Shown piece by piece: positions 1-48,225 of a stretch of DNA of 58,541 nt. Source of the stretch: Deltaproteobacteria bacterium. GTDB lineage: Bacteria > Myxococcota_A > UBA9160 > UBA6930. The notes under the pieces were generated by a model. It was given only the letters and a program-made list of their open reading frames with translations. It was not told the origin of the DNA and searched no databases. Within the stretch, counting starts at the first letter, position 1. Each line of letters begins with the position of its first letter. Where the stretch lies: the NCBI GenBank assembly GCA_002687015.1, contig NYZB01000276.1:1-58541 (forward strand). The letters run 5' to 3'. The translations under genes and the position numbers were made by a program.

Positions 1-1093
1 GCTGCTCGGAGCCCAGCTCCTCCTGCACGCGGCGATGCTCCAGATCCGGACCCTGCTCGTCGACCCGGGCGTCGTGGAGCCCGAGAACCTGGGGAACCAG
101 CTCTTTCCGGCCGATGCCGTCGGAGAGCCCAAGGCGCAGGTGCGCGCCGCCCAGATGGCCGCGCTCAACCCCTCCTGCCCGGTGCGAGCGCTCCCCGAGC
201 GCATCGAGGACGTGGGCCTCGGCCAGCTGGCCGATAGCGACCTGCTCTTGACGGGGCTCGACAGCCGCGCGAGCCGACTCCGCGTTGCCGACATCGCCCA
301 GCAGCTCGGAGTGGATTGGATCGACGCCGCCGTCGACGGCAGCGGCGAGCGACAGCTGGGCGTGGTCACCTGGTTCCGGCCGAAGGAGGCCGACCTGGCC
401 TGCTATGGATGCCGCTACGACGGCGACGCCCTCGCCGAGATCGCGCGCGAGCAGCGGACGGCACCCTGCGCGAGCTGGCGCAACCGGGAGCTTCCGGACT
501 CACCTCCCACCCTCACCGCCTCGCCCTTCGGGGGGATCGTGTCGGGCTGGCAGATGAGCTTCGCCATCCGCGGGTTGCTGGGGGAGGGCGACGCCCTCGC
601 CGGCCACCAGCTGCAGATCGCCGGGGGGGCTCCGCCTCGCATGCGCTCGGTGAGGTTGGCCCGCAACCCGACGTGCCGCTTCTCCCACGCCTCACCGCCC
701 GCCGCGAGCCCCAGCCCGGACGGCGACACGGTCGGAGATCTGGTGTGCGCCGCGGAGAGGGAGCTCGGCGCTCCCCTCGATGGGGTGCGTTTCCCCGGCC
801 GGTCGCTGGTGCTGGGCCTGGTGTGTCCGGCCTGTGGCGGACGCCAGGAACGGGTGAAGCGCTGCGAGGCGGTCAGCGACGCGGAGCTGCGCTGCCCCCA
901 CTGCGGCTCCGCCGAATGCCTGCCCCTCGAGCTCGGAGACGGCCTGGATGCCGCCCGGCTGCAGACCCTCGCCTCGCACACGTGGCGATCCCTGGGAATC
1001 CCGGATCAGGACCTGGTCGTCGCCTCGAGTGCCGGGCGAGAGATCCGCTACCTGCTGCGGCCCGCGATCGAGGGTGGGGGGGCGCCATCATGA
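1..1093 (+). CDS. E1-like ubiquitin-activating / ThiF-MoeB family adenylyltransferase (5' partial, frame open to window edge, codon phase from nt 2)
   Basis: ThiF-type Rossmann/adenylation motifs (LLVDPGVVEPENLGNQ, KAQVRAAQMAALNP). CYGC plus a later C(RF) cysteine pattern as in ThiF/MoeB/E1 Zn sites. About 120-aa C-terminal extension with a CPACGG...CPHCGS zinc ribbon. High third-position GC. Stop overlaps the next start (ATGA at 1090-1093). Confidence 0.85.
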   Translation, partial: LLGAQLLLHAAMLQIRTLLVDPGVVEPENLGNQLFPADAVGEPKAQVRAAQMAALNPSCPVRALPERIEDVGLGQLADSDLLLTGLDSRASRLRVADIAQQLGVDWIDAAVDGSGERQLGVVTWFRPKEADLACYGCRYDGDALAEIAREQRTAPCASWRNRELPDSPPTLTASPFGGIVSGWQMSFAIRGLLGEGDALAGHQLQIAGGAPPRMRSVRLARNPTCRFSHASPPAASPSPDGDTVGDLVCAAERELGAPLDGVRFPGRSLVLGLVCPACGGRQERVKRCEAVSDAELRCPHCGSAECLPLELGDGLDAARLQTLASHTWRSLGIPDQDLVVASSAGREIRYLLRPAIEGGGAPS

Positions 1094-1626
1094 ACGACGT
1101 CATCCGGGCGTTCAGGGGCCGCACCATGGACCGGGATCTCCAGGCCGTGCGTGACCGCAGCGACAGCGTGCGACTCGCTCCGGATCCGCGCAGTGGCGAG
1201 CCCCCGGCCCGGCTCCACGGTGTCTTCCGGGATCTCGCCTACTTCGAGCCCGACGTCCAGCGAAGCTGCCGCGTCGTGCGCCGCCCCCTGCCCTTCTCGC
1301 TCACCTTTGCCGACGACTACTGCTGCTGCAGCGACGGCAGCCTGCAGATGCGCGTCGCCCAGCTACACGCACCCATCGTCCACCCGAACGTGGCGCCCGG
1401 CGGGCTCGTCTGCCTCGGCCCCCGCTTCCGGCCGGGCACCAAGCTGCCGGCCCTGCTCGAGCACCTGCACGCGATCGTCTCGGGGCGCGTCTACGCCAGC
1501 GAGTCTCCTCTCGACCCCGAGGCGGCGCGCCTCTTCCTGCGCGAGGGCGAGCGCGTCCGCGCCCTGCGCTCGGCGCCGCTGTGGCGCGACCCGGTGGCGC
1601 GAGCCGTACGAGTCGAAACCCGCTGA
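1090..1626 (+). CDS. E2-like ubiquitin-conjugating (UBC-fold) protein, 178 aa
   Basis: ATG 1090 overlaps the E1 stop. Sequence HPNVAPGGLVCLG matches the E2 HPN motif followed by a catalytic-Cys loop. Upstream PFSLTFADDY and downstream SPLDPEAARLF resemble canonical UBC core elements. Confidence 0.8.
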   Translation: MNDVIRAFRGRTMDRDLQAVRDRSDSVRLAPDPRSGEPPARLHGVFRDLAYFEPDVQRSCRVVRRPLPFSLTFADDYCCCSDGSLQMRVAQLHAPIVHPNVAPGGLVCLGPRFRPGTKLPALLEHLHAIVSGRVYASESPLDPEAARLFLREGERVRALRSAPLWRDPVARAVRVETR

Positions 1627-1648
1627 GCCAACCCACGAAGGGAGACCC

Positions 1649-1915
1649 ATGACCGCCGCCACCCGCCCGACGCTGATCGACCTCACGCTGTCCGACTGGG
1701 AGGGCAGCCGCAAGGCGCACCTGGAGCAGGTGCCCGCCACCTCGACGGTGGGTCAGGTCGTGAACGAGGCCGTCTCCCACCTCGGCCTTCCGCCCCAGCA
1801 CCTCTACCAGGCGGTGCTGCGCGGCAGGGAGCTCGACCCGGGCGCCATCCTGGACGACCTCGGCATCGCCGCCGACACCGAGATCGACCTGGTTCCCGAG
1901 GTGAGCGCCGGTTGA
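1649..1915 (+). CDS. Ubiquitin-like beta-grasp protein, 88 aa, C-terminus ...PEVSAG
   Basis: ATG 1649 preceded by AAGGGAGA. Size and hydrophobic pattern (TLIDLTL...LRGRELDPGAILDDLGIAADTEIDLV) fit a beta-grasp Ubl. It ends in Gly immediately before the stop and sits between the E2 and JAB genes. Confidence 0.7.
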   Translation: MTAATRPTLIDLTLSDWEGSRKAHLEQVPATSTVGQVVNEAVSHLGLPPQHLYQAVLRGRELDPGAILDDLGIAADTEIDLVPEVSAG

Positions 1916-1977
1916 AGCACCCGCCCGACGGTCCCGGACACCTCGGGACCGCCGGGCACGCCCGGAGGCGACGAACC

Positions 1978-3048
1978 ATGAGCGAGCTCCCCTGGCGCTT
2001 CACTCTCGAAGTGCGACGCGAGAGCGGCGACCTCGCCGCCACGACCCAGGCGAGCGCGGCCCCCTGCATCGAGGCCGCGATCTTCCGGAGCGTGTGGATG
2101 GGCGAGCTGGCCAACGAGGGCGCCTGGCCGGACCTGCAGGTGACGCCGGAGTGGCTCGGCGATGGACGGCCCGTCATCACGGGGCTTGCGGTCGGCGTGG
2201 CCGGCGGCACCCCGCGGCACTTCGGTCTGGAGGCCTTCGCGAGCCAGGCCAGAGCCCTGATTCGCAGCCTCGATGCCGCGGGGCGCATCGGCGCCAAGGA
2301 GCGCGTCCGCTGGAACGTCGCCGCCGACCCGGCCGGGGACCCGGCCGGGCTTGGCAAGGTCCGCATCAGCCGTTCTCCCTTTCCGCTCGAGCCCGCCGAC
2401 CTGCCCGACGTGGCCCCGGGCAGCTTCGGGGTGGGCTTTGCGGCGGAGGTCCTGGCGGGCCTTCATGACCGGGTCCGGAGCACCGGCTCCGTCGAGGGCG
2501 CCGAGCTGCTGCTCGGACGGCTGCACCACGATTCCACCCGTCGCGCCGTACAGCTCTCGGTTGCAGAGGCCCTGCCGCTCACGCCGGGCCGAGGGGGCCA
2601 GTCGAACACGCATTTCGCCTTCGACCCGGGCAGCTTCGTCGCGGCCCGGAGCGCGGCGTTGGCCCGAAGGGACGGTCTGCGCCCGGTCGGCTGGCACCAC
2701 AACCACAACCCCTGCGACGCCTGCCTGGAAAGACCGGACTGCGACGCCAACTGGGTCTTCTTCTCCGAAGACGACCAGCAGGTGCAGGCGACCTTGTTCC
2801 CCTCGCCCTACATGGTCGCCCTGGTGGGCGGAAAGATCGCCGCGCTGCCTGCGAGCCGACCGGGCTTCCGCCTCTACGGGTGGAGCGGCGGGGTGATGGA
2901 GGAGCGCCACTTCGGCGTGACGGGTCCCGGAGCCGAGGCCTGGGACCGGGAGCTCGGCGCCTTCGCCGACGGGGCGCCAGGAAGACCCCCTGTGGGCGCG
3001 CCGAGCCCGGCCACCCCCGAGAAGGAGACGACGTGTCCGACGAACTGA
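1978..3048 (+). CDS. JAB/JAMM (MPN+) metalloisopeptidase with about 165-aa N-terminal domain of unknown function, 356 aa
   Basis: ATG 1978 with GGAGG 9 nt upstream (the track ORF starts at TTG 1912). JAMM elements: VEGAELLLGRL (Glu), WHHNHNP (HxH) and FFSEDD (SxxD). A Cys-rich insert (CDACLERPDCD) lies between HxH and SxxD. Confidence 0.8.
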   Translation: MSELPWRFTLEVRRESGDLAATTQASAAPCIEAAIFRSVWMGELANEGAWPDLQVTPEWLGDGRPVITGLAVGVAGGTPRHFGLEAFASQARALIRSLDAAGRIGAKERVRWNVAADPAGDPAGLGKVRISRSPFPLEPADLPDVAPGSFGVGFAAEVLAGLHDRVRSTGSVEGAELLLGRLHHDSTRRAVQLSVAEALPLTPGRGGQSNTHFAFDPGSFVAARSAALARRDGLRPVGWHHNHNPCDACLERPDCDANWVFFSEDDQQVQATLFPSPYMVALVGGKIAALPASRPGFRLYGWSGGVMEERHFGVTGPGAEAWDRELGAFADGAPGRPPVGAPSPATPEKETTCPTN

Positions 3049-4456
3049 TCCAGCTGCTCAAGGGAGAGGACCTCGAACCGGACGCCGAAATCGCGGCGAT
3101 CGCGAAGGCCTCGGGCGACCCGAAGGCCCTGCGCGTGGTCGCGCGACGCTTGATCGAGCGCCGTCGGGAGATCGGCGTGGAGCTCGCCAAGACCCGCGTC
3201 GCCCTGGAGAAGGCGAAGGCACAGGGCGCCAAAGCGAGGGAGGAGCTCGAAGCATTGCAGCAGCCGCCCCTGCACCCCGGCATCGTGCTGCGGGCCTGCG
3301 CGGACGGGCGCCTGGACGTGGCGACCCGCGGCGGAAGGCAGATCGTCGGGACCTTGCCCCAGCTCGCGGACGTCGAGCTCAAGGCCGGCGACGAGGTGTG
3401 GCTCGACCCGGGCAGCGGCCTGGTCGTCTCCCGGGGCCACGCGGGGCCGCGTCTCGGCCGCGTCCTCACCGTGGCCGAGGTGCTGGACGAGCGGGTGATC
3501 GTGCGCGGCGAGGCCGACGAGGAGCTGGCGCTCCTCTGCGATGCCGCCCTCACCAGGGGCCTGGCCACCGGCGACCGGGTGCTCGCCTCGAGCGAGGTGC
3601 CCTGTGTGCTCGAGCGGCTCCCGGGGGAGCGCCAGGGCGAGCACCTGCTGCAACATGCGCCGGCGACGCGCTTCTCGGACATCGGAGGCCTCGATGCGCT
3701 GATCGCCGAAGTGCGGCAGGAGCTGGAGCTCCACCTCTTCCACCCGGAGCTGGTGGAGAGCCACGGCCTGAGGCTGATGCGCGGCATGACCCTCGTGGGC
3801 GATCCCGGCGTCGGCAAGACGATGCTGGCTTGCGCCATCGCCGGGTTCCTCGCCGATCACGCGCCCGAGACCCGCTTCATGAACGTGAAGCCCGGCTCGC
3901 TGCGCGGCTCGTTCTACGGACAGACCGAGCAGCGCATCCAGGCCCTGTTCGACGCCGCGCGGGCCGCACCAGGCAAGGTCGTGATGTTCTTCGACGAGCT
4001 GGACCACTTCGGCGCCCGTGGCGCGAACCTCGGGCACGACATCGACGATCGGGTGATCGGCACCCTGCTGGCCGAGATCGACGGCCTGGAGGAGGCCGAC
4101 GGCATCTTCATCGTGGGCGCGACGAACCGCCTGGACCTGATCGACGACGCCCTGATCCGCGGCGGCCGGCTCGGCGACCGCATCGTCGAGATCCCGCGGC
4201 CCGGGCGCGGGGCGACACACGCCATCCTCGAGCGGCTCCTGGGGCCGAGCCTGCCCTGGGGCCGCGCCGGCGAGGACCCGGCGGGCGAGGCCGTCGCTTC
4301 GCCCTCGAGGTGCCGTGGAAGCCGGCGAACACGACCGTATCGGCCGAGTTGGAGCAGATGCTCGACGAGGTCGCGGGCCCCCTGCCGGAGCAGCCGACCG
4401 CCAACCACCTTGCGGGCCTCGTGCTGCGAAGCCGTGCGCGAAGGAGAGCCGGGTGA
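3033..4456 (+). CDS. AAA+ ATPase of proteasomal-ATPase (PAN/Mpa/Rpt-like) architecture, with an apparent -1 frameshift near 4270-4300
   Basis: GTG 3033 preceded by GAAGGAGA; it overlaps the JAB 3' end by 16 nt. N-terminal coiled coil (EIGVELAKTRVALEKAKAQGAKAREELEALQQPP), then two OB-like segments (GIVLRACADGRLDV..., GRVLTVAEVLDERVIVRG...). Walker A GDPGVGKT, Walker B VVMFFDELD, sensor-1 GATNR, Arg-finger region RGGRLGDR. After about nt 4290 the original frame becomes Arg/Ser-rich junk. The -1 frame keeps high GC3 (FALEVPWKPANTTVSAELEQMLDEV...) and ends at TGA 4454-4456, overlapping the next start. Confidence 0.75.
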
Positions 4457-4695
4457 GCTACCGACCCCCCATCCTGCTGAAGACCACTCCCCGGCTCGAG
4501 GTGGACGAGCGTCTCTACTACGAGGTCGCCTCGAACGGGATCTTCCAGGTCAAGGAGGCGCCGTGGTTCCGGGCCGTCACCCGGGTGACGCGTGAGGTGC
4601 CCGGGCTCTACCCCTCGCAAGAGAGGCTGGACCTGGACCTGCTCTCCGGACGCCAGGTGCCGGTCCGGCGGAACCTGAGGGCCGCGGCCCGGTGA
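4453..4695 (+). CDS. Hypothetical 80-aa protein translationally coupled to the AAA+ gene
   Basis: GTG 4453 in a GTGA overlap with the AAA+ stop, AAGGAGA 6 nt upstream, strong GC3 bias throughout. I recognise no motif (VSYRPPILLKTTPRLEVDERLYYEVASNGIFQVKEAPWF...). Confidence 0.5.
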   Translation: MSYRPPILLKTTPRLEVDERLYYEVASNGIFQVKEAPWFRAVTRVTREVPGLYPSQERLDLDLLSGRQVPVRRNLRAAAR

Positions 4696-4762
4696 GGCGC
4701 CAGGTCCCAGACGGGGGCCCCTGAGGCGCCTCGACTGGCGGCCACGAGCTGCAATCGACAAC

Positions 4763-4891
4763 ATGACCCGAGACCCGGTGCCTACCTCCACGGGCACGGC
4801 GCGCAGCCACATCTCGGCCGACGGCTTCCGAACGGCCCTCTCCTGGCGGGAAGCCCCCACGAGGCGACTCGAGGAGCGCTTGAGCGAATGA
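4763..4891 (+). CDS. Possible 42-aa upstream ORF coupled to the globin gene (below the ORF-track size cutoff)
   Basis: ATG 4763 to TGA 4889-4891, forming an ATGA overlap with the globin start at 4888. 36 of 42 codons end in G/C. No obvious Shine-Dalgarno sequence and no recognisable motif. Confidence 0.25.
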   Translation: MTRDPVPTSTGTARSHISADGFRTALSWREAPTRRLEERLSE

Positions 4892-5286
4892 ACGACCCCA
4901 CCCCTCCCGAATCCCCCTACCTGCGTCTGGGCAAGGAAGAGGGCATCCGCCGCCTGGTCGAGCTCTTCTACCAGTACATGAGCGAGCTGCCCGAAGCGGC
5001 GACGATCCGCAACATGCACGCCGAGGACATCTCCCCGATGGAGGACAAGCTGACGGTCTTCCTCACGGGGTGGATGGGCGGGCCCGAGCGCTACCGCGAG
5101 CGTTTTGGGCGGGTGATCATCCCCGCGGCCCACGAGCCCTATCCGATCGGCTCCGCGGAGCGGGACCAGTGGCTCCTGTGCATGCGCCACGCGCTCGACG
5201 CCGTCGAGGCCGAGCCGGACCTGATCGAGATGCTCATGCCGGCCTTCACGCAAATGGCCGAGATGTGCCGGACGATCGACGACTGA
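4888..5286 (+). CDS. Truncated hemoglobin-like globin (group II trHb / bacterial globin family)
   Basis: 132 aa. Pattern RRLVELFYQYM...FLTGWMGGPERY...AAHEPYPIGSAERDQWLLCMRHAL matches the conserved trHb layout (GGP..Y, proximal His, D.WL.CM..A). Confidence 0.75.
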   Translation: MNDPTPPESPYLRLGKEEGIRRLVELFYQYMSELPEAATIRNMHAEDISPMEDKLTVFLTGWMGGPERYRERFGRVIIPAAHEPYPIGSAERDQWLLCMRHALDAVEAEPDLIEMLMPAFTQMAEMCRTIDD

Positions 5287-5356: not shown

Positions 5357-6169
5357 ATGACGTCCCTGCGATCCAACGAGCCCGAGACCCTTCGCGACCA
5401 GGTGCGGGAGGGCTACACCCGCATCGTCCAGGACGCGCCGGATGCGGCCCGCGCCGACGAGGCCGCCCGCCGCCTCGGCTACGACGAGGACCAGCTCCGA
5501 GCCGTGCCGGAGGGGGCGAACCTGGGCGTCGGCTGCGGCAACCCCACCGCGATCGATGCGCTGAAGCCCGGCGAGACCGTCGTCGACCTCGGCTCTGGCG
5601 CGGGCATGGACGCCTTCCTCGCGGCCCGCCAGGTGGGCCCCGAAGGCCACGTGATCGGTGTCGACATGACCGACGCCATGCTCGAGAAGGCGCGGGAGAA
5701 CGCGAGGAAGGTCGACCTCCAGGACAGCGTCGAGTTCCGCAAGGGACACATCGAAGAGCTTCCGATCGAGGACGCCAGCGTCGACGCGATCATCTCCAAC
5801 TGCGTCATCAACCTCTCGCCGGAGAAGGACCGGGTCTACGCCGAGGCCTACCGCGTGCTCAAGCCGGGCGGCCGGCTGATGATCAGCGACATCGTGCTCG
5901 AGCGAGAGCTCCCGCAGAAGGTGATCGAGAGCATCGATGCGTACCTGGGCTGCGTGGGCGGCGCCAGCCTTCGCAGCGAGTACCTGGACACGATCGCCAA
6001 GGCCGGCTTCAGCGAGGTCCGCATCGATCGGGAGTCCAGCTTCGCAGAAGCGATCCCTCTCGAGGATCCGAGGGTCCGGGAGGCGATGGAGCGGATGCAG
6101 ATCGGCGAGGAAGAGGCCCGCAGCTTCGCCAGCGCCGTGACGAGCCTGCAGATCTTCGCGCGCAAGTGA
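5357..6169 (+). CDS. arsM: Arsenite S-adenosylmethionine methyltransferase
   Basis: 270 aa. GVGCGNPTA, VVDLGSGAGMD (SAM motif I), GVDMTDAML, SNCVINLS and YLGCVGGA, with the conserved Cys positions typical of ArsM/AS3MT. Confidence 0.85.
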   Translation: MTSLRSNEPETLRDQVREGYTRIVQDAPDAARADEAARRLGYDEDQLRAVPEGANLGVGCGNPTAIDALKPGETVVDLGSGAGMDAFLAARQVGPEGHVIGVDMTDAMLEKARENARKVDLQDSVEFRKGHIEELPIEDASVDAIISNCVINLSPEKDRVYAEAYRVLKPGGRLMISDIVLERELPQKVIESIDAYLGCVGGASLRSEYLDTIAKAGFSEVRIDRESSFAEAIPLEDPRVREAMERMQIGEEEARSFASAVTSLQIFARK

Positions 6170-6185: not shown

Positions 6186-7595
6186 CTAGAGTGGACCCTC
6201 CTGCTCCCCGGTGAGGACCAGGTCGAGGATCCGCTCCGGATCGGTCCATCCCCGCTCGTCCTGGACCTCCCGGCAAGCGCTCAGGATCTCGCCGAAGCGT
6301 TTCGAGGGCGACAGCCCGCGTGCGATCAGGTGGCGGCCGAGGACCACGTCCTTCGGACCCTCGGCGGGGATGGCCAGCTGGCGGGCCTTCTCGAGGAAGG
6401 CCTCCCCAGCCTCGAACTCGCCGCGAAGCGCCTCCTCGGTGGTGCGGCCCAGCTGGTCCGCCCGTGCGATGCGCTCGAGCAGCTCCATCGAGACGCCGCC
6501 CGCTGCGAGCTCACGGGCGAGCCTGCGATAGGCACGCGGCCCCGCGCCGTTCTGGACGAAGAGGGTCGGGGAGAGGTGGTGCAGGACCAGGAGGCCGACC
6601 GCACGGATGAGCTCGTTCGAGATGCGGAGCCTCTCGAGGAGGGCCGAGGTCGGGGGCAGGCCCGCACTCTCGTGGCCGCGAGAGCGGATGCGGCCCTCGA
6701 TCACCTCGGTCGTCGCCGGCTTCCCGAGATCGTGGCAGAGGGCCGCGAACATCAGGGCCGCATCCTCGCCGGGATCGCCCGTGCGCAGCTCTGCAGCGGA
6801 GTCGAGCACCATCAGGGTGTGGATCCAGACGTCGCCCTCGGGGTGCCACTCCGCGTCCTGCGGTACACCCCGAAGCTCGGCCAGCTCCGGGAAGAAGCGG
6901 ATCAGGTCGCTCTCGTCGAGGAATCGCAGGCCGAGCGAGGGCTTGCGCCCCTTCAGCAGCAGCTTGTTGAACTCCTCGCCGAGCCGCTCCCCGGGAAGCT
7001 CCGAGAGGTCGAGCTGCGAGCAGAGACGGGTGAGCTCGGCATCGGGCTCCATCTCGAAGCGCGCCGCGAACTGGGCCACCCGGAGACCGCGCAGCGGATC
7101 CTCGGAGAAGCTCTGCGGATCGGTGGCCCGCAGACGGCCGGCCTCCAGGTCCGCCACGCCTCCGTGGGGGTCGAGCAGCTCTCCGGTGACGAGATCGAAG
7201 CCGATGGCGTTGATCGTCAGGTCCCGGCGGCGCGCGGCCTCGCTGAAGTCGAGCTCCGGATCGACCTGGATCTCGAAGCCGCGATGCCCTGCGCCGGTCT
7301 TGCTATCGCGTCGGGGCAGCGAGAAGTCCACGTCGAGCCCGCGGATCATCAGCACCCCGAAGGACTGCCCCACCGTCATCACCTCGCCGAACTCGCCGAG
7401 AACCTCCGAGAGCTCCGGCAGCCTGAGGCCGAAGGTCTCGACGTCGAGGTCCTTCGACGGCTGGCCGAGCAAGGCGTCGCGCACGGCGCCTCCCACGAGG
7501 AGGGCCCGACCGCCGCGAGCCCGGATCGCCGCTCCGATCGCGTGGACCCGCCGGCCGACCGGGTCGTCGCGCAGATGCTCGCGCAGGGCTTCCAT
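6186..7595 (-). CDS. cca: CCA-adding tRNA nucleotidyltransferase with HD domain
   Basis: 469 aa. LVGGAVRDALLG...DLDV polymerase-beta nucleotidyltransferase head, RRDLTINA motif, HD domain CHDLGK...RGHE. Confidence 0.85.
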   Translation of the reverse strand: MEALREHLRDDPVGRRVHAIGAAIRARGGRALLVGGAVRDALLGQPSKDLDVETFGLRLPELSEVLGEFGEVMTVGQSFGVLMIRGLDVDFSLPRRDSKTGAGHRGFEIQVDPELDFSEAARRRDLTINAIGFDLVTGELLDPHGGVADLEAGRLRATDPQSFSEDPLRGLRVAQFAARFEMEPDAELTRLCSQLDLSELPGERLGEEFNKLLLKGRKPSLGLRFLDESDLIRFFPELAELRGVPQDAEWHPEGDVWIHTLMVLDSAAELRTGDPGEDAALMFAALCHDLGKPATTEVIEGRIRSRGHESAGLPPTSALLERLRISNELIRAVGLLVLHHLSPTLFVQNGAGPRAYRRLARELAAGGVSMELLERIARADQLGRTTEEALRGEFEAGEAFLEKARQLAIPAEGPKDVVLGRHLIARGLSPSKRFGEILSACREVQDERGWTDPERILDLVLTGEQEGPL

Positions 7596-45955: not shown

Positions 45956-47224
45956 TCACGAGAGGACCTCCGGGTTGTCGGCGCCGAGAGGCCTGGCGGC
46001 GGCCGCCCGGCGGGGCGCAGAAGGCGGGGTGGCCACCCCGAGGTAGGTCTGCGGCTCCCCGCCGCGGCGCAGGCCGGCCTCGGCCACGAGATGCGCCACC
46101 GCAGAGAGGGCAACGTCGAGGAGCTCACCGCCCCCTCGCCGCAGGGAGGCCTGGACCGCCAGGGCCGCGTGCACGCCCGTCAGCGGGTCGGCGATCGCGT
46201 CGCCCACGAAGACGGGGCCGGACCGGGGCCACTCGACGAGACCTCCGGACACCGCGGCGTCGTCCCCGAAGGCGACCCAGCCCCCCTGCGGATCGCCGCG
46301 CCCGTAGCCGGTGAGGGAGCACCAGACGCGTCCTGCGCGGCCCCCGACCCAGGCGGCGGCATCGACCCCGAGCTGCGAGAGCGCCCGCGGGCGCGCGCTC
46401 TCGAGCACCACGTCGACCCGTTCGATCAGGCTCTTCAGCTGGAGCCGACCCCGGGGATCGCCGAGGTCGAGGGCGACGCTCTCCTTGCCGGCGTTCAGGA
46501 GATCGAAGAAGGCGGGGGACCCGCGACGGGCACCGTCCGGCCGCGCCCTGCTCTCCAGCTTCGTGACGCGGGCACCGGCGCGCCGCAGCAGGTCGCTGCA
46601 CAGCGGACCGGCCCACAGCGCGCTCAGGTCGAGCACCCAGGGCCGAAGAGGAGCCGGAGTGGGTTCCCCGAGCTGGGACCGGACACACCAGGATCTCGGG
46701 GCACCCTCTTCCCCGGTGCAGCCGACCGCGAGACCCAGCTGCCGCCCCCGGGCCAACAGCTCGCCGGCGTCCCTCGCGGCGACTTCGCGCTCCAAGGCGG
46801 ACCAGTCGCCGGGCTCGATCTCGGCCTCGAGCCAGGCGGGCACGCTGCGCCAGTCGTCGGGCCGAGGCAGGTTCGGGGCGATCCAACCCGTGCGCGTGGA
46901 GACGAGGCGTGCCTGGCCGCCGGGCGCCGTGGCGCCCCGGCGCGACAGGCCGGCCAACGCCGCCCGCTCTCCCAGGAGGCGCGCGTCGAGGCCGGACAGG
47001 TCCGCACCGGGCGCCAGCGAACGCAGACCCAGGAGCGCACCCTCGATGGCCTGGGGCGCGGGAGCGCGCGGCACGAGGATCCGGTCCGGCAAGCCGGTCA
47101 GGGCGAGGGCGCCCGACCGATCCCACGCGGCCTCGTGGGGCTCCTCGCCGCCTGCGGCCGGCGGCTCCACGGGCGCGGCGCCCAGCTCCGCGAGCCGCGC
47201 TCTCGCCCAGGCACAGCGCTTCAC
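45956..47224 (-). CDS. Family III (CaiB/BaiF-type) CoA-transferase-like protein with noncanonical domain order
   Basis: GTG 47224 in a GTGA overlap with the upstream stop. The canonical N-terminal motif (VLDLSALWAGPLCSDLLRRAGARVTKLE, LNAGKESVALDL, LTGYGRGDP) starts only about 190 aa into the ORF. Confidence 0.7.
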   Translation of the reverse strand: MKRCAWARARLAELGAAPVEPPAAGGEEPHEAAWDRSGALALTGLPDRILVPRAPAPQAIEGALLGLRSLAPGADLSGLDARLLGERAALAGLSRRGATAPGGQARLVSTRTGWIAPNLPRPDDWRSVPAWLEAEIEPGDWSALEREVAARDAGELLARGRQLGLAVGCTGEEGAPRSWCVRSQLGEPTPAPLRPWVLDLSALWAGPLCSDLLRRAGARVTKLESRARPDGARRGSPAFFDLLNAGKESVALDLGDPRGRLQLKSLIERVDVVLESARPRALSQLGVDAAAWVGGRAGRVWCSLTGYGRGDPQGGWVAFGDDAAVSGGLVEWPRSGPVFVGDAIADPLTGVHAALAVQASLRRGGGELLDVALSAVAHLVAEAGLRRGGEPQTYLGVATPPSAPRRAAAARPLGADNPEVLS

Positions 47225-48225
47225 CCCCCCGGCTCGATCTCGTCGACCAGACCCCAGCGGAGACACTGGTCGGCGGGGATCCGCGCTCCGGTCAGCGCCA
47301 TCCAGGCCGTTCGCTGGCGCCCGATGCGCCGGGGCAGGCTGACCGTTCCTCCGGCTCCGGGCACGAGCCCCATGCCGACCTCGGGGAGCATCGCGAAGGC
47401 ATCCTCTCGAGCCGAGACCCGCCCGCAGAACGCCGGGATCTCGATCCCCGCGCCGACACAGGCGCCGTGGATGTGGGCGTGTACGCGGCCCGCGAAGGGC
47501 GCGAGCAGGCGACCCGGATTCCGGGTCGAGCGGACCGCGTGGGCGGTGGCCGGGTCGGGGACCGAGCCGAACTCGTCGAGGTCGCCGCCGCTGCAGAAGC
47601 TCGGACCCGAGCCGCGCAGCTCGACGGCTTCGATGCTCGGGTCCTGCTGGACCAACGCCAACGCCTCGCACAGCGCATCGCGCAGCCCGGCCGAGAAGGC
47701 GTTGCGCCGCTGGGGCCGGTCGAGGGTGAGCCGCAGGAGCGCCTGCTCCCGCTCGACGCGCAGGGGATCGCCGGCTTCGGGCGGGGGCTCGCGGCGCGGG
47801 TAGGCCGAGAGCCAGGCTGCGAACTCCGGGCCGCCCTGGAGGGTCCCGTAGACCAGTGACTCTGCGATCAACCCCTCGTGGATGCCGAGGCCCTCGGAAT
47901 GGCGCAGCAGCTGCACGAGGGCCAGGGAGGCGAGTGGGTGAGCGGCGACGGCCGTTTCGATGGCGGCGAGCGCCACCTGGTCCTGGATCAGGACGTCGAC
48001 CCCTGCGGCGAGGGGGCGCAACGCCTCGGCCACCTCGTCGCCGGCCCAGCCGACGGTCACGGCCGGGAGCTCCCCCAGCCGCGCCCAGCGCTCCGGTGCC
48101 GGACGCCCCTGCTCCCGCAGGTCGATGGCGAGGACGGCCTCTCCCGTGAGCACGGACCAGCGCTCCGACGCCAGGGGGTCGGCGAGGGCAGCGGCCAGGG
48201 CGTCGGGGGACCAGGCATCGGCCAT
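47221..48225 (-). CDS. Enoyl-CoA hydratase/isomerase family protein with N-terminal extension
   Basis: 334 aa. LRLTLDRPQRRNAF, FCSGGDLDEF, HGACVGAGIEIPAF crotonase core in the C-terminal half. Confidence 0.75.
   Translation of the reverse strand: MADAWSPDALAAALADPLASERWSVLTGEAVLAIDLREQGRPAPERWARLGELPAVTVGWAGDEVAEALRPLAAGVDVLIQDQVALAAIETAVAAHPLASLALVQLLRHSEGLGIHEGLIAESLVYGTLQGGPEFAAWLSAYPRREPPPEAGDPLRVEREQALLRLTLDRPQRRNAFSAGLRDALCEALALVQQDPSIEAVELRGSGPSFCSGGDLDEFGSVPDPATAHAVRSTRNPGRLLAPFAGRVHAHIHGACVGAGIEIPAFCGRVSAREDAFAMLPEVGMGLVPGAGGTVSLPRRIGRQRTAWMALTGARIPADQCLRWGLVDEIEPGG

Follow-up and report, generated by a model that had tools for sequence, protein, structure and literature searches.

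Can a bacterial operon combine a ubiquitin-like conjugation pathway with its own proteasomal-type unfoldase? The question is raised by the first 4695 nucleotides (nt) of contig NYZB01000276.1 (assembly GCA_002687015.1, Deltaproteobacteria bacterium); the whole 58,541-nt stretch that was analysed is referred to below as the window. A preliminary description of the sequence had read positions 1–4695 as a complete operon of six co-directional genes, encoding an E1, an E2, a ubiquitin-like protein (Ubl), a JAB peptidase, an AAA+ unfoldase and an orphan protein of 80 amino acids (aa). Our comparison with homologous loci gives this operon a different status. It is very probably a recently degraded copy of a conserved cluster of 11–12 genes: of its genes, four are intact and one is truncated, and the rest consists of fragments (Table 1). 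The feature that had drawn attention to it, an E1/E2/Ubl/JAB set hard-wired to an AAA ATPase, holds for the family as a whole, whereas the copy in the window is a remnant.

Because long spurious open reading frames (ORFs) fill all six frames of the window at a GC content of about 70%, coding frames were called from third-position GC (GC3) together with homology. Proteins from intact homologous loci served as tblastn queries against the window. The flank lying 5′ of the window was supplied by L001, a contig with an identical locus found by an exact-match look-up of the E2.

An intact family of 11–12-gene clusters

In the intact relatives the genes follow a fixed order: g2 (a RING-like zinc finger protein), E1, E2, g5, Ubl-1, JAB-1, AAA+, Ubl-2, g10, JAB-2 (g11) and E1-2 (g12). 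This order is identical in all loci long enough to judge, about 17 loci falling into two clades. The Myxococcota-like clade comprises L007–L013, L015, L016, L018–L022 and L030; the Acidobacteriota-like clade, 30–47% identical to it, comprises L014 (Ca. Sulfopaludibacter) and L023–L029. The full order is seen in L007/L008, L009 (the same locus as L012), L010/L011, L013–L016, L018, L020, L023 and L025, and the partial contigs L019, L021, L022, L024 and L026–L030 are consistent with it. Examples of intact loci are JAFDCZ010000004, JAZFWH010000016 and JARLGM010000208. A further gene, g1 (284–353 aa), lies 5′ of the cluster in some Myxococcota-like loci only, and a gap of about 750 nt between AAA+ and Ubl-2 in L025 (8641–9394) leaves room for an extra gene absent from the other loci.

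A full-length Mpa-like AAA+ gene, 532–545 aa outside the window, is located directly 3′ of JAB-1 in every homologous locus reaching that far, so that the ATPase is a conserved neighbour, as the preliminary description had supposed. In the majority of intact loci JAB-1 and AAA+ either overlap or directly adjoin each other, and the same is true of g10 and JAB-2. One full-length AAA+ homologue can be aligned co-linearly over residues 39–498 with Mpa (7px9, 5kwa). No HbYX or GQYL tail is present at the C-termini of the intact ATPases, which end in LRAA, LRVA or TRLG: the tail (R/H/Q)-(L/I)-L-R-(A/V)-A is conserved in the Myxococcota-like L007, L009, L010, L013, L015 and L016, and YTRLG is the C-terminus in the Acidobacteriota-like L014. 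Seven full loci were checked for Pfam families of the proteasome, of Pup, PafA and Dop and of other peptidases, and none appeared among their called genes.

Two of the other proteins resemble known families. In the intact loci g2 carries eight invariant ligands of the C4HC3 type and gives sub-threshold matches to Prok-RING_1 in three of five members (best 6.7e-4). The protein encoded by g5 (231–292 aa) lies between E2 and Ubl-1 wherever this interval is on the contig and matches YbjN/type III secretion system chaperone profiles in all five members searched (best 3.3e-4). Profiles of g5 and g10 compared with the PDB returned nothing useful.

The family is rare. In a search of 5.8 billion clusters, in which the best 8000 candidates by shared words were scored, at least 24 relatives of JAB-1 were recovered, all about 50% identical. 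JAB-1 is carried by 3 of 185,579 species-representative genomes, and the E2 is matched by 68 of 1.84 billion representative proteins.

A truncated ATPase and gene relics downstream

Measured against this family, the locus in the window is the only one that lacks g5 or has a short AAA+. Its ATPase, which begins with GTG at 3033, matches residues 3–424 of 541–545-aa homologues, up to nt 4301, and the native sequence ends at about residue 421 (nt ~4298). The coiled-coil region and the OB domains are retained, as are Walker A (residue 256), Walker B (319), the sensor-1 region (362) and the Arg-finger region (377). The copy has lost its entire C-terminal region and the greater part of the helical lid, whereas intact homologues have a complete AAA module. 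The proteasomal-type coiled-coil/OB/AAA architecture named in the preliminary description is thus upheld by the Mpa-like homology, but for a copy without lid and C-terminus. Profile hidden Markov models agree with this assignment and with that of the E1 (Table 1): AAA is matched at 5.8e-27, Prot_ATP_ID_OB_C at 2.4e-13 and OB_N at 0.0038, and the best NCBIfam match is TIGR03689 (pup_AAA, "proteasome ATPase") with 242.3 bits, aligned from model position 16. The equivalog cut-off of that model, 504.75 bits, is missed, the scored copy being that of the window, which lacks the last ~120 native residues.

Beyond this point the ORF continues out of frame. By GC3, the coding signal lies in frame 3 up to ~4290, moves to frame 2 there and passes at ~4453 to frame 1, where it stays to 4695; past ~4320 frame 3 no longer ranks first in GC3. 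In tblastn with the proteins of intact loci, the frame-3 tail has no homology to any AAA+ C-terminus. Gene callers nevertheless read through it and give a 520-aa AAA+ ORF in every assembly of the locus.

What follows in the other two frames belongs to genes of the second half of the cluster. In frame 2, nt 4292–4447 match residues 215–266 of the 268-aa g10 protein with 55–63% identity. In frame 1, nt 4453–4635 match residues 1–61 of the 252-aa JAB-2, a part that lies before the JAMM motif, and nt 4621–4689 match residues 217–239 of the 240-aa ThiF protein E1-2. What had been taken for an 80-aa orphan gene therefore consists of two gene ends fused in frame, the first ~60 residues of JAB-2 and the last ~22 of E1-2. 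Its Shine–Dalgarno sequence, GAAGGAG, is inherited from the g10/g11 overlap, and the GTGA at 4453 is the ancestral junction between the g10 stop and the JAB-2 start. The preliminary description had taken this GTGA for an AAA+/orphan junction, but its TGA (4453–4456) closes frame 2, and the AAA+ frame 3 stays open past 4456.

Table 1. Features of the degraded cluster within positions 1–4695 of the window
Feature	Position	Strand	Remarks
E1 (ThiF-type adenylating enzyme)	2..1093	+	5′ end outside window; Pfam ThiF 7.9e-21
E2 (UBC-like, HPN...Cys108)	1090..1626	+	UQ_con E = 0.015; start overlaps E1 stop
E2/Ubl spacer, probable deletion scar	1627..1648	.	22 nt; site of g5 in other loci
Ubl-1	1649..1915	+	88 aa, C-terminal VSAG; Rad60-SLD E = 0.0011, ubiquitin E = 0.033
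JAB-1	1978..3048	+	N-terminal alpha/beta domain and C-terminal JAMM/MPN metallopeptidase, three-Cys insert
Truncated Mpa/ARC-like AAA+ ATPase	3033..4298	+	TIGR03689, Prot_ATP_ID_OB_C and AAA matches; tblastn
Out-of-frame AAA+ tail	4299..4595	+	99 codons, Arg/Pro/Ser-rich; non-native
C-terminal relic of g10 (52 residues)	4292..4456	+	frame 2, no own start codon; GC3 0.90
"Orphan" ORF	4453..4695	+	in-frame JAB-2 (g11)/E1-2 (g12) chimera, 80 aa; GTG start

The upstream end of the cluster is damaged as well. A fragment of g2 covering residues 58–178 is found at L001:8464–8826, just upstream of the window; it has no ATG. The preliminary description had seen no E3 in view, yet the family encodes this C4HC3, Prok-RING_1-like candidate. 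The fragment abuts the start codon of a divergent gene, a 161-aa ORF on the minus strand (L001:7985–8470) without a Pfam match. We considered whether this ORF could be a truncated SorC regulator and rejected the idea, as it has no similarity to the regulators of L015–L017. Two further genes of the relatives are absent as a whole, namely g5 between E2 and Ubl, and Ubl-2 after AAA+. The spacer between E2 and Ubl resembles the g5–Ubl intergenic region of L007, although this reconstruction at the DNA level is suggestive only.

Four deletions would account for these differences. One would have removed everything upstream of residue 58 of g2, and another g5. A third, out of frame and with its junction at ~4292–4298, would have taken the AAA+ lid and C-terminus, Ubl-2 and the first 214 residues of g10. 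The fourth, in frame, would extend from about residue 61 of JAB-2 through about residue 216 of E1-2 and would have created the 80-aa chimera; at its junction (~4627–4640) the sequence contains the direct repeat CTGGAC-CTGGAC (4627–4638). This repeat and the likeness of the 22-nt spacer are consistent with deletion without proving it. Relative to L007, in which g2–g12 span 8.7 kb, the four events amount to a loss of about 3.6 kb. The same structure is present in six assemblies that are 99.97–100% identical, with 0–2 mismatches and no gaps over up to 11.6 kb.

The deletions appear to be recent relative to the split from the nearest known relative, because the remaining genes show no excess of changes at invariant sites and the surviving fragments keep both their GC3 (0.90–0.93, frame-specific) and their identity to homologues (55–69%, the same range as for intact genes). 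Since the six copies are nearly identical to one another, changes were counted by a leave-one-out approach, tallying substitutions at columns invariant in all other sequences. The window copy has 0 of 66 for AAA+, 2 of 48 for JAB, 1 of 22 for E2, 0 of 14 for Ubl and 7 of 52 for E1, and divergent intact loci show similar or higher counts (e.g., 19 of 64 for the L014 E1).

Judging from its sequence, this copy presumably no longer has a working unfoldase or any working part of the second module; what might still function, if transcribed, is the first half alone, which tags and de-tags.

Conjugation and deconjugation genes of the window

E1, E2, Ubl-1 and JAB-1 are intact in sequence. The five co-directional ORFs from E1 to AAA+ (the last from 3033 onward) and their junctions had been placed correctly in the preliminary description: ATGA at 1090–1093 joins E1 and E2, a 22-nt gap precedes Ubl, and JAB-1 and AAA+ overlap by 16 nt (3033–3048). 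The complete E1 has 395 aa and starts 95 nt upstream of the window (L001:8817); the part lying in the window is co-linear with the E1 proteins of intact loci at 56–60% identity (tblastn).

The E2 is predicted to be a UBC-family enzyme with an HPN motif and a catalytic Cys. H98, P99, N100 and C108 are invariant in all six cluster orthologues; in a 47-sequence family N100 is invariant and the other three are conserved in at least 90%, so the HPN...C signature reported earlier is borne out. When a profile of these 47 sequences was compared with the PDB, all matches were E2 enzymes for ubiquitin, NEDD8 or SUMO; the best (3.9e-5) lines up at the HPN motif and the catalytic Cys. The UQ_con match is stronger in the L009 orthologue (4e-4), and the C-terminus of the window protein is 8–10 residues shorter than that of most orthologues.

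Ubl-1 is, by its profile matches, a ubiquitin-family modifier ending in Gly: an 8-sequence profile matches the Caldiarchaeum Ubl (6e-5) and ubiquitin. The terminal VSAG, and with it the Gly noted in the preliminary description, is invariant among orthologues. Some of these have 1–32 residues beyond the Gly (L007:7625–7996, L009:7717–8004, L013:2355–2633 and L016:6781–7059), and such tailed forms look like precursors for C-terminal trimming by a deubiquitinase.

JAB-1 has no Pfam match. Its start was set at ATG 1978, in agreement with where homologues begin; TTG 1912 could also serve. The AF2 model (pLDDT 86.5) points to an MPN fold of the Rpn11/BRCC36/CSN5 type, with the Caldiarchaeum Rpn11 homologue (6fnn), BRCC36, CSN5 and Rpn11 as the best Foldseek matches (E ~1e-7). 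The JAMM residues are complete, as had been claimed: E173, H241, H243, S263 and D266, together with C246, C249 and C255, are invariant in 24 sequences.

The second module

The last four genes of the intact cluster, Ubl-2, g10, JAB-2 and E1-2, resemble a second conjugation set. Ubl-2 consists of a single ThiS-like domain that in every case ends in AGE(K/R)G plus 2–3 residues, and this tail, too, looks like one made for C-terminal trimming. JAB-2 contains the motif HSHADLSAYSSSVD and has weak Prok-JAB and PRTRC_A matches; E1-2 is short and matches ThiF at 5.7e-12. The 268-aa g10 protein has an invariant P134-N135...C150 motif, and on account of this motif it is possibly a divergent E2. Foldseek matches of its AF2 model (pLDDT 90.4) are non-significant and inconsistent, Rad6, Ubc13 and UbcH7 recurring at E 0.14–0.7 among sliding clamps.

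This module also occurs outside the cluster. In L017 (9775–12274) it stands alone as a four-gene cassette beside a divergent gene for a SorC-type ("Sugar-bind") regulator; in L015 and L016 a divergent regulator gene of the same type precedes the full cluster. The g10 family forms more than 270 clusters, all without a name or Pfam domain, compared with at least 24 for JAB-1. As g10 clusters far outnumber those of JAB-1, module 2 is probably the older, more widespread cassette, and module 1 with the ATPase may have been added onto it.

One variation within the module concerns L010 and L011, which come from sister samples, share the same JAB-1 protein and have identical gene coordinates up to JAB-2. 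In L010 (11792–13270) JAB-2 and the short E1 form one 492-aa ORF, and in L011 (11792–13310) they are two overlapping genes of 253 and 255 aa. Either the two genes are truly fused in L010, or the difference comes from a frameshift.

Genomic surroundings

Downstream of the relic lie genes for a truncated haemoglobin (Bac_globin, 4888–5286), an S-adenosylmethionine-dependent methyltransferase (5357–6169) and, on the minus strand, a CCA-adding/poly(A) polymerase-family enzyme with an HD domain (6186–7595). The relic thus sits among ordinary chromosomal housekeeping genes, with no obvious mobile element between 4888 and 7595. A scan of 4300–5000 for promoters and terminators found none. Scans of the whole 58.5 kb of the window (1–58541) yielded neither tRNA nor tmRNA genes, nor any Rfam family at gathering score; its GC content peaks at 46001–48000 (0.757 versus ~0.70 elsewhere).

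Alternative explanations

That the six ORFs form a complete, functional operon, tagging, unfolding and de-tagging as encoded, is highly improbable, even though six tightly packed co-directional ORFs can be drawn and the long AAA+ ORF is called in every assembly. The 520-aa protein is native only to about residue 421; the "orphan" is made of two gene ends and is preceded by the C-terminus of a third gene lacking a start codon; and all other loci combine a full-length ATPase with five or six more genes. A programmed ribosomal frameshift near 4295 would fuse AAA+ to the frame-2 segment and give the ATPase a variant C-terminus, which would suit the high GC3 of that segment and its proper stop overlapping the next start. 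We give this idea practically no credence: the segment is homologous to the end of the g10 protein and not to an AAA+ lid, the arrangement occurs in no homologue, and no slippery heptamer was recognised by eye at 4285–4320, a region for which no formal search was made. It is also very hard to credit that collapsed or chimeric assembly is behind the deletions and changes of frame. The contig was assembled from short metagenomic reads, and several samples may come from related Tara Oceans material; yet an artefact would require four independent false junctions, and it is unlikely because six contigs whose names follow different assembler styles (scaffold, NODE and k127 records and one JGI contig) agree.

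A more serious alternative, though in our view still an unlikely one, is that E1, E2, Ubl-1 and JAB-1 survive as a streamlined, minimal Bil-like system amid inert fragments. Their four frames are uninterrupted and co-linear with those of homologues, the catalytic residues are kept, invariant-site changes are not in excess, and four-gene E1/E2/Ubl/JAB (Bil) systems are functional elsewhere (PMC11601596, PMC11601603). But the native upstream region is lost, and with it any promoter and the part of the RING-like gene that codes for its N-terminal third, and the g2 fragment now abuts the start of a divergent gene. Recent deletions would leave the genes just as free of decay, open frames last long by chance at 70% GC, and there is no four-gene variant among the ~17 loci.

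We therefore keep to the view that the locus is a recently degraded cluster, while acknowledging what weighs against it. The nearest intact relative is just 51–66% identical, and the deletions are deduced from comparison, not observed. The loss of g5 has left no fragment, so its absence could in principle be primary, though all other loci have g5. Finally, the four genes from E1 to JAB-1 are without decay, and "degraded" describes the cluster, not necessarily these four.

Proposed working of the intact system

For the intact system we propose a scheme whose steps follow from homology and gene order, and we do so tentatively, with somewhat more doubt than confidence in the whole. JAB-1 would trim Ubl-1 precursors and expose the Gly of VSAG; Ubl-1 would then be adenylated by E1 and handed as a thioester to Cys108 of E2. 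The RING-like g2 could act as an E3 in the transfer to target lysines, and the YbjN-like g5 may assist as an adaptor that binds peptides. An Mpa-like hexamer would engage the tagged proteins via its coiled-coil/OB collar and unfold or extract them, and JAB-1 would strip the tag during AAA+ processing. Because the cluster has no peptidase and the ATPase no 20S-docking tail, a segregase- or unfoldase-like output (cf. Cdc48) seems more plausible than proteasomal degradation. Module 2 may run a second, ThiS-like cycle of conjugation and deconjugation.

This logic of tagging, unfolding and de-tagging is a reasonable hypothesis for the intact family; in the window copy it cannot operate unless a lid-less AAA+ is active. 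We also speculate, though we consider it rather unlikely, that the intact family represents an undescribed bacterial ubiquitin-unfoldase machine, a prokaryotic counterpart, or a relative of the antecedent, of the coupling between Rpn11 and the Rpt ATPases in the 19S particle, without a 20S core.

Significance of the family

How ubiquitin tagging, an AAA+ unfoldase and an Rpn11-type deubiquitinase came to be coupled is an open question in the evolution of the ubiquitin–proteasome system. To our knowledge, the bacterial Ubl systems studied to date (CBASS Cap2/3, Bil and Bub) include no ATPase, and the Pup system uses another tag and other chemistry. A single bacterial cluster that encodes a tag, an E1, an HPN-type E2, a RING-like protein, an Rpn11-like JAB and an Mpa-like ATPase would offer a compact system for reconstituting this coupling. 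The objects of interest are the intact relatives; the copy in the window is an ordinary accessory locus undergoing pseudogenisation. The intact family extends the known bacterial Ubl-conjugation operons and bears on the origin of ubiquitin-unfoldase coupling. The locus also carries a warning for annotation: at 70% GC, gene callers read through deletion scars, reporting a 520-aa "AAA ATPase" here and missing the 80-aa chimera.

Comparison with known systems

The architecture described here is undescribed in the literature searched, although a prior computational mention is possible (Burroughs et al. 2009, 2011, 2012). Bacterial Ubl operons are listed without an AAA+ partner by Iyer et al. 2006, where "AAA" does not occur, and in a 2024 review; one 2024 Bub/Bil preprint does not mention "ATPase", and the introduction of a second describes none. 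The proteins of the window give only generic matches in PADLOC v2, to CBASS E1-E2 for the E1 (3e-6) and to IetA and TRIP13 for the AAA+; E2, Ubl and JAB have no PADLOC v2 match, and the cluster fits no system model.

Prok-RING-associated "eukaryote-like" ubiquitin operons were reportedly described by Burroughs, Iyer and Aravind in 2011, and module 1 is closest to these Caldiarchaeum-type operons. A ubiquitin, an E1, an HPN-containing E2 and an Rpn11-like JAB are encoded by separate genes in both, and the small RING E3 of those operons (Nunoura 2011, PMC3082918) has a candidate counterpart in the RING-like g2. The Caldiarchaeum Ubl is the best single-domain PDB match of Ubl-1, and its Rpn11 homologue the best structural match of JAB-1. 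Unlike these operons, the present family is bacterial, its JAB-1 has an extra N-terminal domain and a three-Cys insert, and it adds a YbjN-like protein, an Mpa-like AAA+ after JAB and a second Ubl/JAB/E1 cassette.

Bil systems (type I/II, class "6d" of Iyer et al. 2006) likewise keep E1, E2, Ubl and JAB as separate genes in one operon, and their JAB also has an N-terminal alpha/beta domain. Their E2s, however, have a CEHH motif and no classical His (PMC1779556 Table 1; PMC11354881), BilA has two beta-grasp domains as opposed to one in the 88-aa Ubl-1, and no ATPase is included. Membership in Bil was rejected on the HPN motif of the E2 and the single-domain Ubl. Type II CBASS with Cap2/Cap3 was rejected as well: E1 and E2 are separate genes here, and the locus has no cyclase.

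Module 2 has the general layout of Bub ("6E"/DUF6527) and PRTRC-type cassettes, to which the single JAB-2/E1-2 ORF of L010 adds a further likeness. Assignment to Bub was rejected, since L009 g9–g12 contain no DUF6527/PF20137 serine protease and no polyUbl and the Cys of g10 is invariant, a catalytic Cys being absent from the E1 and E2 of Bub. PRTRC was rejected on scores: PRTRC_A reaches 18.4 against a cut-off of 101.8 bits and PRTRC_ThiF 27.8 against 144.75 bits (TIGR03735/TIGR03736 cut-offs). No ParB family is present among the cluster genes of the seven full loci.

The nearest published precedent for a Ubl tri-ligase set beside an AAA+ is the FtsH-ternary conflict system (Kaur et al. 2020, PMC7159879), in which an E1/E2/RING/JAB/Ubl set and an AAA+ are predicted in one neighbourhood. 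Such systems are enriched in multicellular bacteria, including deltaproteobacteria, and the same paper notes a related Ubl system adjoining a Pup system in Thermofonsia and Planctomycetes. The present cluster encodes none of the characteristic parts of FtsH-ternary systems, which are a vWA-MoxR pair, an FtsH-type ATPase of two domains, caspase-like effectors and a fusion of Ubl and E2 used with an EAD1 adaptor.

The ATPase itself shares with Mpa/ARC and PAN, by homology, a coiled coil, two OB domains and a single AAA module. It differs from them in the score of the window copy, which is below the equivalog level, in the missing GQYL/HbYX tail and in the lack of Pup, PafA/Dop and 20S genes in its cluster. 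Compared with the 26S proteasome, the cluster encodes no lid scaffold, Rpn8-like partner or 20S core, though it does encode a tag of the ubiquitin family with an E1, an E2 and a RING-like protein; what the two have in common, as an analogy of layout only, is an Rpn11-like JAMM peptidase encoded beside a coiled-coil/OB/AAA ATPase, as Rpn11 sits on the Rpt ring.

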